Part shown: positions 21,715 through 29,204 of the stretch, one piece after another | How the letters are laid out: each line of letters begins with the position of its first letter | Position numbering within the stretch: the stretch's first letter is position 1 | Sequence record: MN158206.1 | Source of the DNA: Escherichia phage BEK2 | Strand: one strand, 5' to 3' | Length of the DNA: 46,880 nt | Notes under the pieces: generated by a model | Told to the model about the DNA's origin: nothing | The model's input: the letters and a program-made list of their open reading frames with translations, nothing else | Databases searched by the model: none | Made by a program: the position numbers and the translations under genes

Positions 21715-21758
21715 ATAGTATCGCATCCTTGCGATCAGTGTTTAGCAATTAGTGCTAT
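21715..21758 (-). promoter_or_regulatory. box promoter cassette P3
   Basis: Minus strand: ATAGCACTAATTGCTAAA (21758-21741), 22-nt spacer, TACTAT (21720-21715), leader CCATCGAAACGAAA. The box encodes the last five residues (NSTNC) and the stop of the methyltransferase. Confidence 0.65.
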
Positions 21759-22431
21759 TCGCCAAAAATACAGCTCTTGCAAATCCACGAGGTGTAAGAC
21801 TGCGAATTACCTTTGTTTTCTTGCTCTTCCCGCCTAGCTTCTTGTGCTGGTCTGAGTATCCATCATTAACGTCAACTGGTGAGGCTTGAGGCCATTTAAA
21901 CCCATTGCCAGACCAAATGCACGTCTTCTTAGGATATGCGTCTCTTGGCTTTATTAGGTCGCTAAAAAACGGGTGTAAATCATCTTCCGGCAAATAGCCT
22001 CCGTATTCGTAAGGGTGAAACGTGTTATCAGGTTTACTCCAGAGCGATGACAGCACGCTGACTGGGTTCTCAATCATGTATGGAACTCCGTATTTTTCAG
22101 CCAGTTTAAAAGCAACCTTGCAAGTCTCTGCCGCCTCAATTTGGAAGTTTTGGTTGGCTAGGCGCTTACGCTCAAAGTGTGCTGCCCCGCTCACGGCTAA
22201 ATCCGTACAGGGCGGGAATGCCATGATAAAATCAGGCTTCACATCAAAATCAAAACTGGAATCTATCCAGGCATTAACGTATGTAATGTTCTCATGCTCA
22301 ACCTTTGCATTTAAGTCACTGTAGCTCCCGTGGTCGGAATCATCAAAGTTGAAGCAGCAGCATGTGTGGCCAGCTTCAGCCCAATCATTTACAGCCAAAC
22401 CAGAACCATCAAATAAAGACCAGATAACCAT
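21742..22431 (-). CDS. DNA (cytosine-5) methyltransferase, compact form
   Basis: Motif I SLFDGSG, motif [13 protein letters not shown], motif VI MIENPV, C-terminal [11 protein letters not shown]. Only 229 aa. Confidence 0.75.
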
Positions 22432-26379: not shown

Positions 26380-27588
26380 TTAAACACCAGTCAGTCTAGA
26401 TAACTCCCTACGTAGAAGCGCGCACTCTAGAGCGAGGCACTCCTCCATTCGAACCATCCATATTTCTCCAGCATCCTTACTTTCATCGGCATCCCATTTT
26501 TCGTGAATAAGTATTCCGTAATCACATGCGTCCAGACCTGCTTTAAGGAACTTGTCTCTGATGTCTTGAGCAATTACACCAATGTGTAGACGAGCTTCAT
26601 TGTCTCCCTTCTCAGAAACTGCCCTCTTCATTTTCCACTGCTTGTAATTTACTGTACTCCAGGCATCAAGAACTTCGTCAGGAATATCACCTATAAAAAC
26701 CTTGTGGTTTTCATCGGAAACAACTGTAGGTGCGTTCTGAAAATACGCATTGTTATATGTCAGTGATGCATATCCAATGTTATGCGTCGCGGTAACGTCA
26801 GGTGCAAGTGTTCTTGTTCTAAGTATTCCCGACACATTACCTCCTCCGAAGTTTACAGCAGCAGTAGTATTTAGCTCTGCACCACTTACGAACTCCTGAA
26901 TCCAGGGGCCTACCGAAGATGAGGATATTTGTCGACGCCACCCCGTCTGCGATGCGCCATTAGTTCGCAATGTTTGTATGGTGTCGTTATTACCTATAAG
27001 GTACTCAACATCCATAATTGATGCACCAGTGCCTCTAGTTGGTACATCTGTGAACACAGAGAATACGGAGCCTGGAATGTAATATCGACCTGGTGTTTTT
27101 ATGTTAGACAGAAGGTTTCCGTTTGATGATGCACTAGAAGCCGTCATGAACTCGATCAATCCAAACTGAAAAACTTTATGCCAACCAGAATCCACGTAAT
27201 TAGCAGCGGCAGATCTATTTATGTGACGTGACCAAAGACCGTTTTCGTTCTGGTAAAAAAAAGAAATCTTATTGTTAGCCTCAAGTGAAGCGTAAACAGT
27301 TAGACGACCAGAAAGTCGTGCGCCGTTGGTTAGAGAAGGCATATCAAATTCTGTGTTTACACTCTGTGCAATCTCCGTCATAAATATGGCGTTATTTGGC
27401 ATTCTGGTAGCAATCAGAGACACAGTCGCTTCATCTGCGGTAATACCTAGTTCAGCAAGTTTAGTCAGAGTCATTACACCGGACTGGTCGTTGAGTCTAC
27501 CTATCTGAGACTCTATCATCATTAAGGCTTCGTCGAGGGAGTCTTTATTGGCAGTAAGAATGTTGGCATCGAGGGTTAATTTTTCCAT
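26380..27588 (-). CDS. tail fibre protein with C-terminal intramolecular chaperone (S74-type) domain
   Basis: The C-terminal ~110 aa (DEVLDAWSTVNYKQWKMK...RLHIGVIAQDI...LEECLALECALLRRELSRL) match the self-cleaving chaperone-domain pattern of endosialidase/T5 pb1-type fibres. Confidence 0.75.
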   Translation of the reverse strand: MEKLTLDANILTANKDSLDEALMMIESQIGRLNDQSGVMTLTKLAELGITADEATVSLIATRMPNNAIFMTEIAQSVNTEFDMPSLTNGARLSGRLTVYASLEANNKISFFYQNENGLWSRHINRSAAANYVDSGWHKVFQFGLIEFMTASSASSNGNLLSNIKTPGRYYIPGSVFSVFTDVPTRGTGASIMDVEYLIGNNDTIQTLRTNGASQTGWRRQISSSSVGPWIQEFVSGAELNTTAAVNFGGGNVSGILRTRTLAPDVTATHNIGYASLTYNNAYFQNAPTVVSDENHKVFIGDIPDEVLDAWSTVNYKQWKMKRAVSEKGDNEARLHIGVIAQDIRDKFLKAGLDACDYGILIHEKWDADESKDAGEIWMVRMEECLALECALLRRELSRLTGV

Positions 27589-27598
27589 TTTAATATCC

Positions 27599-29116
27599 TT
27601 AAATTGTGAGGTCTACGTATAGTGGTTTGTGGTCACCTATAGCGAGAGGTGTATCTACAGAGCCATATTCACCTTGTTCTGAAAAACCTTTGTGGAATAT
27701 GCGATCAAGATACCATGTACCGCCGTTATTGCTGGTATTAATCTCCCCATTCCGGTTAACCATTGTGAAACCTGCGTCTATGAATGGTTGAAAATCAGAA
27801 TCGTTGTTGGTGTTCCAGTCACCCATCAATACGACATGGCTGTGTGTTTCTGCTGCAGCCATGCTTGCTAACTCGGTTATCATGGCACTAATGCGTTCCT
27901 GTGATAGCGCTAGATGAGTATTATAAACTACAACCGTTGTGCCGTTAACTTTCATCTCAGCTCTTACATAACTCCTGTATTCTGTGTCGCCTACTGTTGG
28001 TTGAGATAAGAAACGGGATCCGGTGACATTGGTTAGCGGTCGAGTTGAAGCTACCATGTTCCCGTAGTTTCTACCGAAGCTGAACCACTCTGAAGTTGAC
28101 TGGAAACCCGATCCGTAAGGGTAAAGCGCTAATTCGGATGCTCGCAAGTTGGGTACAGTATAGCTTTCCTGGCCGCCAACAAAATCCGCACCTATCCGTA
28201 GCCACCAAGTATTAATGTCAACGATTCGCTGCCTGTTAGCGTAGTCACCACCGAAATATCCACTTATACTGCCGGCTCCCCAGTTGTTCCAAGTGACGAA
28301 ACGAACCTTGTTAGAAGTAATTGCGTCTTCGCGCTCTCGAATCATCTGGCGTACGTTATCAGTTGAAGTTGCGACGATCTGTTCCCTAAGGGTAGCATCT
28401 GTTAGGCCAATCCATGCTGTCGGGCCTATTCCGCCAGTCGAATCCACGGTTGAGTTTGCTGGAACAACCTTAGGAAGTTCACCTCCCCACACGTAAGATG
28501 CTGCATTGCCATCTTTAATATCTATTATTTGCTGTGTTTTTGATTCAATTGTAACGCCATCCTGAAAGCTACCAATTAAGGCACCAGAAACAGAAGCGGC
28601 ACTTGCTGCGGCCTGTTGCGCAGATGTGGAAGCTGATGATGCGCTCAATTCGGATGATTGCTTATCCTGTGATACCTGATAAGCATCACTTGATACTTGA
28701 GCGCCAATGGTGACAATTTCTCCATATTGTGTGTTAATTTGGTTAACATCATTTGAAAATTTATCCTGATCAAAATCCTTAAAAACATCAACAGCTGTTG
28801 CAACTTCCGTTTCACGTGACTGGTAGTAACGAAGAGTTTCTGCAACATCCTGAGCCAAACCTTGAACGGTAATCCCATCGTGCGCAAGGATTGCGTAACC
28901 AGTTCCAGCAGGAACGGTTTCAGAGTTGGGGTTGTAAACATTAATCTGCGTATCGCTGATAATTTCTGAGATGGTGTAAATCTGTACCGGCTCTGTTTTA
29001 AATACAATGGTTGCACCAACTCTGATCAGTGTAAGTGGTGCCTTCCATGTTGTACCTACGCCAATAACCTCGCCATTTGCGGCCAGCGAAGCTGTTCCTA
29101 AGTCATAAATTGCCAT
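27599..29116 (-). CDS. tail fibre-like protein with C-terminal endonuclease/exonuclease/phosphatase (EEP) domain
   Basis: 505 aa from ATG 29116 (AAGGAG SD). Fibre-like N-terminus and a Ser/Ala-rich linker (SSELSASSASTSAQQAAASAASVS). EEP motifs: VTWNNWG, GGQE, VYNTHL, GDWN, LDRIF, GDHKP. Confidence 0.7.
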   Translation of the reverse strand: MAIYDLGTASLAANGEVIGVGTTWKAPLTLIRVGATIVFKTEPVQIYTISEIISDTQINVYNPNSETVPAGTGYAILAHDGITVQGLAQDVAETLRYYQSRETEVATAVDVFKDFDQDKFSNDVNQINTQYGEIVTIGAQVSSDAYQVSQDKQSSELSASSASTSAQQAAASAASVSGALIGSFQDGVTIESKTQQIIDIKDGNAASYVWGGELPKVVPANSTVDSTGGIGPTAWIGLTDATLREQIVATSTDNVRQMIREREDAITSNKVRFVTWNNWGAGSISGYFGGDYANRQRIVDINTWWLRIGADFVGGQESYTVPNLRASELALYPYGSGFQSTSEWFSFGRNYGNMVASTRPLTNVTGSRFLSQPTVGDTEYRSYVRAEMKVNGTTVVVYNTHLALSQERISAMITELASMAAAETHSHVVLMGDWNTNNDSDFQPFIDAGFTMVNRNGEINTSNNGGTWYLDRIFHKGFSEQGEYGSVDTPLAIGDHKPLYVDLTI

Positions 29117-29139
29117 CGTGTAAAGTCTCCTTTTGTAAA

Positions 29140-29157
29140 ATAGCACGAATTGCTAAG
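29140..29157 (+). promoter_or_regulatory. orphan box copy, antisense to the local operon
   Basis: ATAGCACGAATTGCTAAG on the + strand between two minus-strand genes. Nearest -10-like hexamer is TATAAA (29180-29185) at 24 nt, and it runs straight into the terminator hairpin. Confidence 0.5.
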
Positions 29158-29182
29158 TTGGATTGTAGCATCTTTCGGGTAT

Positions 29183-29204
29183 AAAAAACCTCCCGAAGGA
29201 GGTT
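29183..29204 (-). terminator. rho-independent terminator (UUCG loop on minus strand)
   Basis: Minus strand: AACCTCC-TTCG-GGAGGTT followed by T6. Overlaps the primase stop codon. Confidence 0.8.

Follow-up and report, generated by a model that had tools for sequence, protein, structure and literature searches.

The stretch of DNA analysed here (the window) is the 46,880-nt record MN158206.1 of Escherichia phage BEK2. An open reading frame at 27599..29116 (minus strand, read from 29116 to 27599) encodes 505 amino acids plus stop, annotated in GenBank as "tail fibers protein" (QGH76808.1); an earlier note on this DNA had its coordinates and length right, and the strand is minus. The gene is identical to its counterpart in Escherichia phage BEK3 (MN158207.1), an Rtp-like member of the Drexlerviridae, and its product is called the BEK3 fibre below. 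It belongs to PHROG tail-fibre families phrog_24092 (E 1e-61) and phrog_31166. A second gene of 402 codons (26380..27588, minus strand; QGH76807.1, "hypothetical protein") lies immediately downstream.

The two-gene locus

The fibre gene starts with the ATG at 29116, and its ribosome-binding site, AAGGAG, lies 10 nt before it at 29132-29127. A longer version would start from a GTG at 29146, which has no ribosome-binding site. A terminator scan and direct reading of the sequence suggest a control region at 29120..29204 (minus strand), putative since it consists of consensus matches only: a terminator-like hairpin 3′ of the primase gene (29204-29187, from the scan), and an extended −10-like TGcTACAAT (29170-29162). 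The locus sits between the SSB and primase genes, matching Rtp and JulesPiccard, in which a single ordinary fibre gene occupies this place. At the DNA level, homology with other Rtp-like phages extends out of the primase gene through approximately the first 115 codons of the fibre gene and ends there. The base composition of the two genes is that of the genome, with no compositional sign of recent transfer.

The fibre protein was previously described as having three parts, a fibre-type N-terminus, a Ser/Ala-rich linker, and a C-terminal endonuclease/exonuclease/phosphatase (EEP) domain. All three are there, but a fourth, between linker and EEP domain, had been missed. The virion anchor (approximately residues 1-140; 28697..29116, minus strand, as are all features below) is of a type common to Drexlerviridae lateral fibres and depolymerases: residues 1-167 match the Drexlerviridae Klebsiella depolymerases 7lzj, 7vyv, and 7vz3 in a phmmer search of the PDB (E ~1e-35). 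The linker (residues 141-182; 28571..28696) is 67% Ser, Ala, or Gln. The additional part is a Tail_spike_N domain (residues 182-238; 28403..28573; Pfam PF18668, E 7.3e-15), with PDB matches to tailspikes 9lna, 8x8m, 5w6f, 4oj5, and 5w6h; in tailspikes of the CBA120 and G7C types this module stands ahead of the catalytic domain, and the EEP domain thus takes the place of the catalytic beta-helix in ordinary tailspikes. A helical neck follows (residues 241-268; 28313..28396), comprising helices 2-9 and 15-25 of the AF2 model, in which N254, R262, and A265 are conserved among close relatives (columns N14, R22, and A25 of alignment A1). The EEP domain itself covers residues 269-505 (27602..28312).

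The downstream gene begins 10 nt past the fibre stop codon, with a ribosome-binding site overlapping that stop, which makes co-transcription very likely, as judged from the gene arrangement. In its N-terminal part (residues 1-235; 26884..27588), the product is predicted to form a helix and a beta-rich globular domain, the part kept in all the partner proteins described below; residues 3-221 match phrog_22156 (E 8.3e-19). A short stalk (residues 236-290) and an S74 intramolecular chaperone (residues 291-402; together 26383..26883) make up the remainder. The Peptidase_S74 match (E 3e-11) includes the Ser...Lys self-cleavage motif, with cleavage predicted before S291, between VV and SDENHK, and the chaperone of GA-1 gp12 (3gud) matches it as well. 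The S74 chaperone and its SD..K motif are shared with phage T5 pb1 and other S74 fibres; the likeness to T5 pb1 covers only residues 255-402, the chaperone with its short stalk. The GenBank note on polymannose O-antigen binding is an over-transfer, because the N-terminal 235 residues of the partner have no counterpart in T5.

The EEP domain and its active site

The EEP match (PF03372, residues 296-496) has an E-value of 7.5e-11 and scores 42.6 bits against a cutoff of 24.5, and the domain has the four-layer alpha/beta-sandwich fold of the EEP superfamily. The six motifs quoted in the earlier note are all present and in order between residues 274 and 498: VTWNNWG (274-280), FVGGQE (312-317), VVYNTHL (396-402), LMGDWN (430-435), YLDRIF (469-474), and IGDHKP (493-498). 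Together they provide every residue of the EEP set for metal binding and catalysis (N, E, H, D-x-N, D, D-H), as N277, E317, H401, D433, N435, D471, D495, and H496. These residues are invariant in alignment A1; in alignment A6, of 33 divergent representatives with 16% mean column identity, they are the sole invariant columns. The pattern speaks for purifying selection on exactly the eight catalytic residues.

A profile search assigning another fold had been named as a refutation; the searches made here uphold the EEP call. The A1 profile finds 3teb (1.5e-7), TDP2 (~0.007), one Apn2 chain (0.01), 4ruw, and 3g6s in the PDB, and the BEK3 motifs align with TWN, SHL, and GDxN of TDP2. DNase I, ExoIII, APE1, and sphingomyelinase gave no match to the family profile in the PDB at E ≤ 0.1, and an NCBIfam search merely a sub-threshold generic EEP match.

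One lead on the chemistry comes from the nearest relatives outside phages. GlcNAc-PDase is an EEP sugar-specific phosphodiesterase of the PGAP2IP/Cwh43 cluster (PMC10704324). The BEK3 protein has no match to the corresponding family, PF23226 (PGAP2IP / GlcNAc-PDase type), at E ≤ 1, but it is matched (E-values to 1.9e-32) by more distant bacterial relatives of the phage EEP profile, its nearest ones outside phages, which are multidomain proteins of surface type. BEK3 is not filed under PF23226, and the relation is a lead on chemistry only. Bacteroides BT3783 (PDB 3MPR/4C1R) and GlcNAc-PDase are soluble secreted or periplasmic catabolic enzymes, whereas the BEK3 domain is part of a fibre; their reactions take off terminal phosphate or PC/PE groups, and neither is known to cut a chain.

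Linkage, mobility, and hosts

In all loci examined (eight phage lineages and two prophage types), the gene immediately 3′ of the EEP fibre gene encodes a homologue of the 402-residue protein. Six other phage partners match phrog_22156 with E-values from 6.5e-14 to 1.5e-168, and hhalign relates the partner types at 98.5% (PM116/PA28) and 99.9% (the 1919D3 protein). EEP and partner identities co-vary across the same four sub-clades. The EEP domain is the sole region common to all proteins preceding a partner gene: the BEK3 version has the Drexlerviridae anchor, but the same domain is found behind a T7 gp17 N-terminus in CR44b, CtuP_B1, and P0067, behind a P22 head-binding domain in P0004 and P0057, and behind Tail_spike_N in the Kuttervirus Se-J and in Citrobacter koseri and E. 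coli prophages. Proteus phages and one Providencia genome are further carriers. The pair moves as one cassette between differing virion anchors.

The earlier note had rightly seen the downstream gene as a coupled, S74-bearing one, but treated it as a second fibre next door; from its distribution it is more than that, an obligate, co-inherited companion of the EEP domain. This in turn qualifies the EEP domain's supposed distal position: it is C-terminal in the protein, but with an obligate partner the fibre, once assembled, may really end elsewhere. The partner is similar to receptor-binding proteins. In CR44b, GenBank annotates both gp17 (EEP) and gp17.01 (partner) as having "matches in mass spectrometry analysis" of virions, and gp17.01 was described as a putative tailspike by Toribio et al. 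(PMC4038870). Physical contact between EEP protein and partner is suggested by their linkage and co-variation. Like T2 gp38 and Mu/P2 Tfa, which are fibre-tip adhesins with a gene of their own or assembly proteins that stay on the fibre, the partner is a small protein encoded directly 3′ of a fibre gene, found in virions (CR44b), and co-varying with the fibre tip; the analogy extends to neither sequence nor fold, and unlike in those systems the tip on which it would sit is an enzyme domain.

Several of the carriers have informative hosts. CR8, CR44b, and CrRp3, podophages of two podovirus subfamilies with EEP cassettes, all infect Citrobacter rodentium, whose O-antigen is a candidate receptor for them; CrRp3 and CR44b are 52% (EEP) and 48% (partner) identical, compared with 25-38% to most others. 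The C. rodentium O-antigen is that of E. coli O152 (PMC11412857, PMC12501221), and O152 and O173 are among the 6 of 182 serogroups (O84, O152, O160, O172, O173, and O181) with sugar-phosphate-sugar backbones, in which monosaccharides are bridged by phosphodiesters (PMC9912281). The sole complete E. coli genome found with an EEP cassette, strain 1919D3, carries an O173 wzx/wzy cluster. The genome was reached by a DNA search with the C. koseri cassette via their shared anchor, so that carriers number at least one; the phosphodiester-O-antigen hypothesis had been written down before this case was found. O173 wzy is present in only 5 of 5426 genomes, and the 1919D3 cluster includes a Stealth hexose-1-phosphate-transferase-type gene (Stealth_CR2, E 2e-40). 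DNA searches of E. coli genomes with the BEK3 EEP domain, the BEK3 partner, and the CR44b and W22 cassettes gave no match, a scan of species-representative genomes for the EEP domain found none, and IMG/VR yielded two C. koseri-type prophage loci only.

The prophage copies also adjoin O-antigen-modifying genes: gtrA/gtrB/GtrII in 1919D3, and the conversion gene Acyl_transf_3 in C. koseri. A phosphate-linked O-antigen, one of the targets originally proposed, thereby gains independent support from these genes and from the hosts of the homologues. The phosphodiester-bridged O-units are those of homologues' hosts (C. rodentium O152-type and E. coli O173); the BEK3 sub-clade comprises BEK3, W22, one metagenomic phage, and the C. 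koseri prophages, and none of the hosts found for it has a known O-antigen structure.

The strain on which BEK3 was isolated is a rough K-12, a host on which lateral fibres are normally dispensable (PMC11990801); the L-shaped fibres of T5 and the lateral fibres of BEK3 belong to systems of this kind. The lateral fibres of Drexlerviridae and T5-like phages are described as binding O-antigen (PMC11990801).

Possible roles of the cassette

We consider it probable, with some reservation, that the two genes encode a receptor-binding module in two parts, and that its EEP domain cleaves a phosphodiester-linked surface glycan. The 505- and 402-residue proteins would form one cassette on the lateral tail fibre of BEK3, the former docking to the virion by its Drexlerviridae-specific anchor and displaying a catalytically intact, metal-dependent phosphoesterase where ordinary tailspikes bear a glycosidase or lyase beta-helix. 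The partner would be a receptor-binding-protein-like subunit, in BEK3 trimerising with the help of its self-cleaving S74 chaperone, and most likely remaining on the EEP-bearing fibre to add binding specificity. The most likely activity of the EEP domain is hydrolysis of phosphodiester bonds in a phosphate-containing surface glycan. Because of the hosts of the homologues and the O-antigen-modifying genes beside the prophage copies, O-antigens with repeat units linked sugar-1-phosphate-sugar are the best candidate substrate; what serotype BEK3 targets we infer by extension. With the O-antigen cut, the phage could reach the outer membrane and its central fibre bind the terminal receptor there.

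Parts of this scheme have precedents. In CBA120 TSPs and G7C gp66-gp63.1, as in BEK3, a lineage-specific anchor is followed by Tail_spike_N and then by an enzyme domain aimed at O-antigen (in BEK3, presumably so), and a second receptor-binding protein is encoded next door and probably hangs on the first. The catalytic modules differ, being beta-helix glycosidases or lyases or SGNH esterases in that group and an EEP phosphoesterase here; the phrog_22156 partner is also unrelated to XD-type branching domains, and its attachment to the EEP protein is presumed. The Klebsiella Drexlerviridae depolymerases (7lzj, 7vyv, 7vz3) have a homologous anchor and the same virion position on a T1/Rtp-like siphovirus, but are approximately 900 residues long and carry the name depolymerase in their PDB depositions; in BEK3, all that lies beyond the anchor is replaced by Tail_spike_N and EEP domains, and a separate partner gene is added. 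Virion enzymes that hydrolyse a phosphodiester-linked polymer at adsorption are known in phi29/GA-1 gp12 and staphylococcal GDPD tail proteins, which act on teichoic acid; these differ from BEK3 in fold (beta-helix or GDPD), in their Gram-positive hosts, and in their poly-alditol phosphate substrates.

An alternative to which we give a small chance is that the domain strips phosphate-linked decorations and leaves the chain uncut. Side groups of phosphoethanolamine, phosphocholine, or glycerol or ribitol phosphate would be candidates, as would sugar phosphates in terminal position, whether the carrier is O-antigen, LPS core, or ECA. The SGNH esterase tailspikes offer a parallel, since they merely deacetylate their glycan (G7C gp63.1, for example, modifies O-antigen without cutting it), and such a role would fit the two characterised sugar-active EEP enzymes, BT3783 being a sugar phosphatase and GlcNAc-PDase taking PC/PE off GlcNAc-6-P. 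The Proteus and Providencia carriers fit as well, the O-antigens of these genera being rich in phosphate-linked substituents. However, in the two cases where the host is best defined (O152-type and O173), the serogroup is a rare one with phosphodiesters in the backbone itself, and a backbone cut would serve the phage better. The EEP fold might alternatively be a docking platform, mainly structural, for a partner that is the real receptor-binding element, with catalysis irrelevant. That EEP is the one region shared by all proteins preceding a partner gene, and that it co-varies with a partner resembling receptor-binding proteins, would be expected of such a platform. Yet only the eight catalytic and metal residues are invariant, at approximately 16% mean column identity, and invariance of these alone indicates selection for catalysis rather than for an interface; docking and catalysis can moreover coexist, and we regard a purely structural role as very improbable.

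Two further alternatives keep the catalysis and change the substrate, and both seem unlikely. A virion-borne nuclease could ease access to cells by attacking extracellular DNA of the biofilm matrix or capsule-associated DNA. But the cassette behaves like a host-specific receptor-binding protein, swapped among unrelated phages of one host (CrRp3 and CR44b), with a dedicated receptor-binding-like partner, with O-antigen conversion genes adjoining, and with phosphodiester O-antigens associated, while diversification by host is not something that extracellular DNA would select for; the family profile also missed DNase I and ExoIII, like sphingomyelinase, at E ≤ 0.1. The acidity of the EEP domains (pI 4.5-5.4) is at best a weak further argument, as we judge it non-discriminating for substrate; DNase I is acidic too. 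A membrane-proximal, phospholipid-type target would imply a sphingomyelinase- or phospholipase C-like activity that loosens or strips the outer leaflet, acting on phosphates of lipid A or the core, or on the anchors of ECA (phosphoglyceride) or group 2 capsules (lyso-PG). Were the target a conserved one such as lipid A or ECA, neither the strong diversification into sub-clades linked to hosts nor the association with O-antigen conversion genes and rare O-serogroups would be accounted for; the description of Drexlerviridae and T5-like lateral fibres as O-antigen binders (PMC11990801) also argues against it.

Hydrolysis of a phosphodiester-linked glycan by a two-part module is accordingly the reading we prefer. 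A more specific version of it, to which we would give slightly less than an even chance, is that EEP-plus-partner cassettes are an unrecognised class of depolymerase, in which two subunits hydrolyse the phosphodiesters of glycosyl-phosphate O-antigen backbones (O152- and O173-like, and other phosphate-bridged surface glycans) rather than glycosidic bonds, with the partner supplying sugar recognition. In the literature searched (PF03372 in phages, BEK3, BASEL, Ackermannviridae, and tailspike modularity), we found no description of an EEP or phosphodiesterase tail-fibre module, and no experimental degradation of a host polysaccharide by one; the linkage of the EEP gene to a phrog_22156 partner and the mobility of the cassette appear to be new here.

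The known phage receptor-binding enzymes, which are used for host-range prediction, serotyping, and as anti-virulence enzymes, are glycosidases, lyases, or esterases. A class of phosphodiesterases, if real, would explain how phages pass O-antigens and capsules bridged by phosphate, where the phosphate link is beyond the reach of glycosidases. An EEP domain with a phrog_22156 partner would then be a sequence marker predicting phosphate-bridged hosts; such cassettes could predict, type, or strip rare phosphodiester-linked serogroups, and would be reagents for cleaving glycosyl-phosphate polymers, a chemistry common to several vaccine-relevant capsules. The obligate partner raises the separate question of how two-component fibre tips are built.

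Domain structure and setting of the fibre gene

Sequence identity between the window and the genome of Escherichia phage BEK3 (MN158207.1; Drexlerviridae, Braunvirinae; E. coli K514 as isolation host) is 100%, a few one-base differences in length aside. The two sequences are 46880 and 46884 nt long; the offset to MN158207.1 is 0 near 22 kb, +3 at the fibre genes and +4 at the primase, which puts a few single-base differences in intergenic regions, including the one that separates the fibre genes from the primase gene.

An earlier note had proposed, from the sequence alone, a 505-aa tail-fibre-like protein ending in an endonuclease/exonuclease/phosphatase (EEP) domain. The open reading frame exists (29116 to 27599, minus strand); an AAGGAG site lies 10 nt ahead of its ATG (29116), while an alternative longer GTG start at 29146 lacks such a ribosome-binding site. 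All six quoted EEP motifs are found in the order claimed, and the assignment of residues 269-505 to an EEP domain is borne out by Pfam (PF03372, E 7.5e-11, above threshold). The proposed layout of fibre-type N-terminus, linker and EEP domain also stands, but it missed a Tail_spike_N domain between the last two (residues 182-238; PF18668, E 7e-15), a module that CBA120-type tailspikes (PDB matches) also have ahead of their catalytic domain. The N-terminal anchor (residues 1-167) matches Klebsiella Drexlerviridae depolymerases (PDB 7lzj and 7vyv, E about 1e-35) and tail-fibre PHROGs; the linker (residues 141-182) is 67% Ser/Ala/Gln. Eight EEP residues (N277, E317, H401, D433, N435, D471, D495, and H496) are invariant in close homologues, and these are also the sole invariant columns in an alignment of 33 distant cluster representatives with a mean column identity of 16%, which points to selection for catalysis at the putative active site.

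In the related phages Rtp and JulesPiccard, a single conventional fibre gene (960 and 704 aa, respectively) occupies this position between SSB and primase. The DNA of other Rtp-like phages is homologous to that of BEK3 across the primase gene and about 115 codons at the start of the fibre gene, but no further, so the distal part of the fibre has been replaced. A strong terminator-like hairpin directly past the primase stop codon (AACCTCC-TTCG-GGAGGTT plus a T run; 29187-29204, minus strand) and an extended -10-like element upstream of the fibre gene (TGcTACAAT; 29162-29170, minus strand) suggest transcription of the fibre cassette from a promoter of its own, without read-through from the primase operon. 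Elsewhere in the window, a 229-aa ORF annotated as hypothetical (21742-22431, minus strand) has no Pfam match at E<=0.001; C5-cytosine methyltransferase-like motifs can be picked out by eye (21 residues, not shown). An annotated homing endonuclease gene (MN158207.1 576-1088, plus strand; about 576-1088 in the window) separates the genes for the two terminase subunits, small and large.

Distribution of the EEP domain and its partner

A tblastn search of 50,697 phage records found the EEP domain in 17, including Escherichia phage W22 (Justusliebigvirus, 57% identity), Citrobacter phages CR44b and CR8 (Kayfunavirus) and CrRp3 (Vectrevirus), Proteus phage PM116, “Pseudomonas” phage PA28 (classified as Novosibovirus), Cronobacter phage vB_CtuP_B1, and four Salmonella Kutterviruses. 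Further carriers, Citrobacter koseri prophages among them, came from metagenomes and genomes, and 43 clusters passed E<=1e-30 when the profile was run against 1.84 billion representatives. In predicted structures of viral proteins, close resemblance to the EEP model is limited to these phage proteins, the remaining matches being giant-virus EEPs. The N-terminus varies with lineage (a T7 gp17 N-terminus, a P22 head-binding domain, Tail_spike_N or short anchors): the usual signature of a horizontally exchanged receptor-binding protein (RBP) module.

Some records deserve comment. The PA28 record (OM234793.1) is labelled as a P. aeruginosa phage and UNVERIFIED; its cassette most resembles the one carried by PM116, a Proteus phage (EEP domain, 43%), and the host label may be wrong. 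“Pseudomonas phage PsgS01F” has the same length and match statistics as E. coli phage UALMA_PCEc3. Molineuxvirinae carriers have a second, larger RBP gene just upstream of the EEP gene (PM116 locus L007, 972-2816; CrRp3 locus L006, 1052-2788), in PM116 with a pectate-lyase-like beta-helix domain, and so carry two different enzymatic RBPs each.

In BEK3, the EEP gene is followed by a gene for a 402-aa partner (27588 to 26380, minus strand), which starts 10 nt past the EEP stop codon and has a ribosome-binding site overlapping it. At all loci examined, a homologue of about the N-terminal 235 residues of this protein is encoded directly downstream of the EEP gene: W22 gene 141, Se-J gp099, CR44b gp17.01, CrRp3 cds9, QQM14952 in vB_CtuP_B1, ANU80132 in PM116, a 215-aa ORF in PA28, S74 proteins of 445 aa in a 131-kb metagenomic phage and 428 aa in the C. 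koseri prophages, and a 266-aa protein in a prophage remnant of E. coli 1919D3. These residues belong to the uncharacterised family phrog_22156 (E 8e-19 for BEK3, 6.5e-14 to 1.5e-168 for six other partners); profile-profile comparison extends the match to the PM116/PA28-type (98.5%, E 3.6e-15) and 1919D3 (99.9%, E 3.7e-36) partners. By pairwise identity, EEP domains and partners fall into the same four sub-clades (BEK3, W22, metagenomic phage and C. koseri; CR44b, CrRp3 and CtuP_B1; Se-J and 1919D3; PM116 and PA28), so the two genes are inherited as a unit. GenBank notes record both CR44b gp17 and gp17.01 as detected by mass spectrometry; the latter was named a putative tailspike in the genome announcement (PMC4038870). 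The EEP domain is the sole element common to all proteins preceding the partner, which suggests this domain, or a site beside it, as the place where the partner docks.

Partners of the BEK3 sub-clade have an additional short stalk and S74 chaperone, with a VV|SDENHK motif at residues 289-296. The GenBank note on the BEK3 partner reads [quoted passage not shown]; the likeness of this protein to T5 pb1-type fibres is confined to this chaperone and stalk (residues 255-402), and the note looks like an over-transferred annotation.

Hosts with phosphodiester O-antigens

Fold comparison singled out no particular EEP branch, so hosts were examined for a substrate. CR8/CR44b and CrRp3 belong to different podovirus subfamilies but share the host C. 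rodentium ICC168/ICC180, and CR44b and CrRp3 are 52% (EEP) and 48% (partner) identical; with phages on other hosts, identity is 25-39%. C. rodentium has the same O-antigen as E. coli O152 (PMC11412857, PMC12501221), one of just six of 182 E. coli serogroups (O84, O152, O160, O172, O173, and O181) in which, according to a 2023 review, a phosphodiester joins two monosaccharides (PMC9912281).

The phosphodiester-O-antigen hypothesis was recorded before being tested on E. coli genomes. When 5,426 complete genomes were searched at the DNA level with the C. koseri cassette, one of them, strain 1919D3, proved to encode an annotated EEP RBP (31% identity to the BEK3 protein over 342 aa, E 4e-37, all catalytic residues kept). 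Its galF-gnd locus has annotated O173-family wzx and wzy genes, the latter carried by five of the 5,426 genomes, and includes a Stealth-family gene (locus L018, 19878-20876; Stealth_CR2 E 2e-40, CR3 E 5e-6). Stealth proteins are hexose-1-phosphate transferases, and this one presumably makes the sugar-1-phosphate bridge. Upstream, the cluster is interrupted by ISAs1 remnants. Two cassette sub-clades are thus tied by carrier host (O152-type C. rodentium and O173 strain 1919D3) to two of the six phosphodiester-backbone serogroups, the E. coli case being one genome. The BEK3 sub-clade has no host of known O-antigen structure and, in DNA searches, no E. coli prophage counterpart. BEK3 itself was isolated on a rough K-12 derivative; lateral fibres of the BEK3 type are normally dispensable on such hosts (PMC11990801). 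The O152 and O173 antigens are closely related. The wzy of E. coli SE11 (NC_011415.1, 2357346-2358425), a strain usually cited as O152, matches the O173-family polymerase at 99.1% identity; if that serogroup is right, O152/O173 typing may be confused in annotation or serology.

Possible function of the cassette

Most likely, the fibre and partner genes form a mobile two-gene receptor-binding cassette, in which the EEP domain is predicted to hydrolyse the phosphodiesters of a phosphate-bridged surface glycan (an O-antigen is the most plausible one) and the partner would contribute binding. The earlier observation is confirmed and its interpretation supported. In prophages, the cassette is followed on the opposite strand by gtrA, gtrB and GtrII (1919D3; locus L017, 8016-10725) or an Acyl_transf_3 acyltransferase gene (C. 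koseri; locus L013, 8524-9579), typical lysogenic-conversion modules for O-antigen modification. Temperate phages typically place such genes beside an O-antigen-directed RBP. Further support comes from a known sugar-specific EEP phosphodiesterase, GlcNAc-PDase, which clusters with PGAP2IP/Cwh43 (PMC10704324). Outside phages, the phage EEP profile has its closest relatives in surface-type proteins of several domains (Big_2, cadherin-like, FIMAH), whose EEP domains match the PGAP2IP-type model PF23226; the BEK3 domain itself does not match it.

Removal of phosphate-linked decorations, leaving the chain unbroken, is less well supported than cleavage of a phosphodiester backbone of the O152 or O173 kind. 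The same holds for a nuclease acting on extracellular DNA. Lipid A, core or ECA phospholipid is also a less well supported target. A purely structural role for the EEP domain would account for partner docking, but is less well supported given the signs of selection on its active site.

No description of the EEP-partner module was found in the literature searched, and its database labels are automatic domain names only. Enzymatic phage RBPs as such are already known; what is new here is the predicted catalytic chemistry and the obligate partner.
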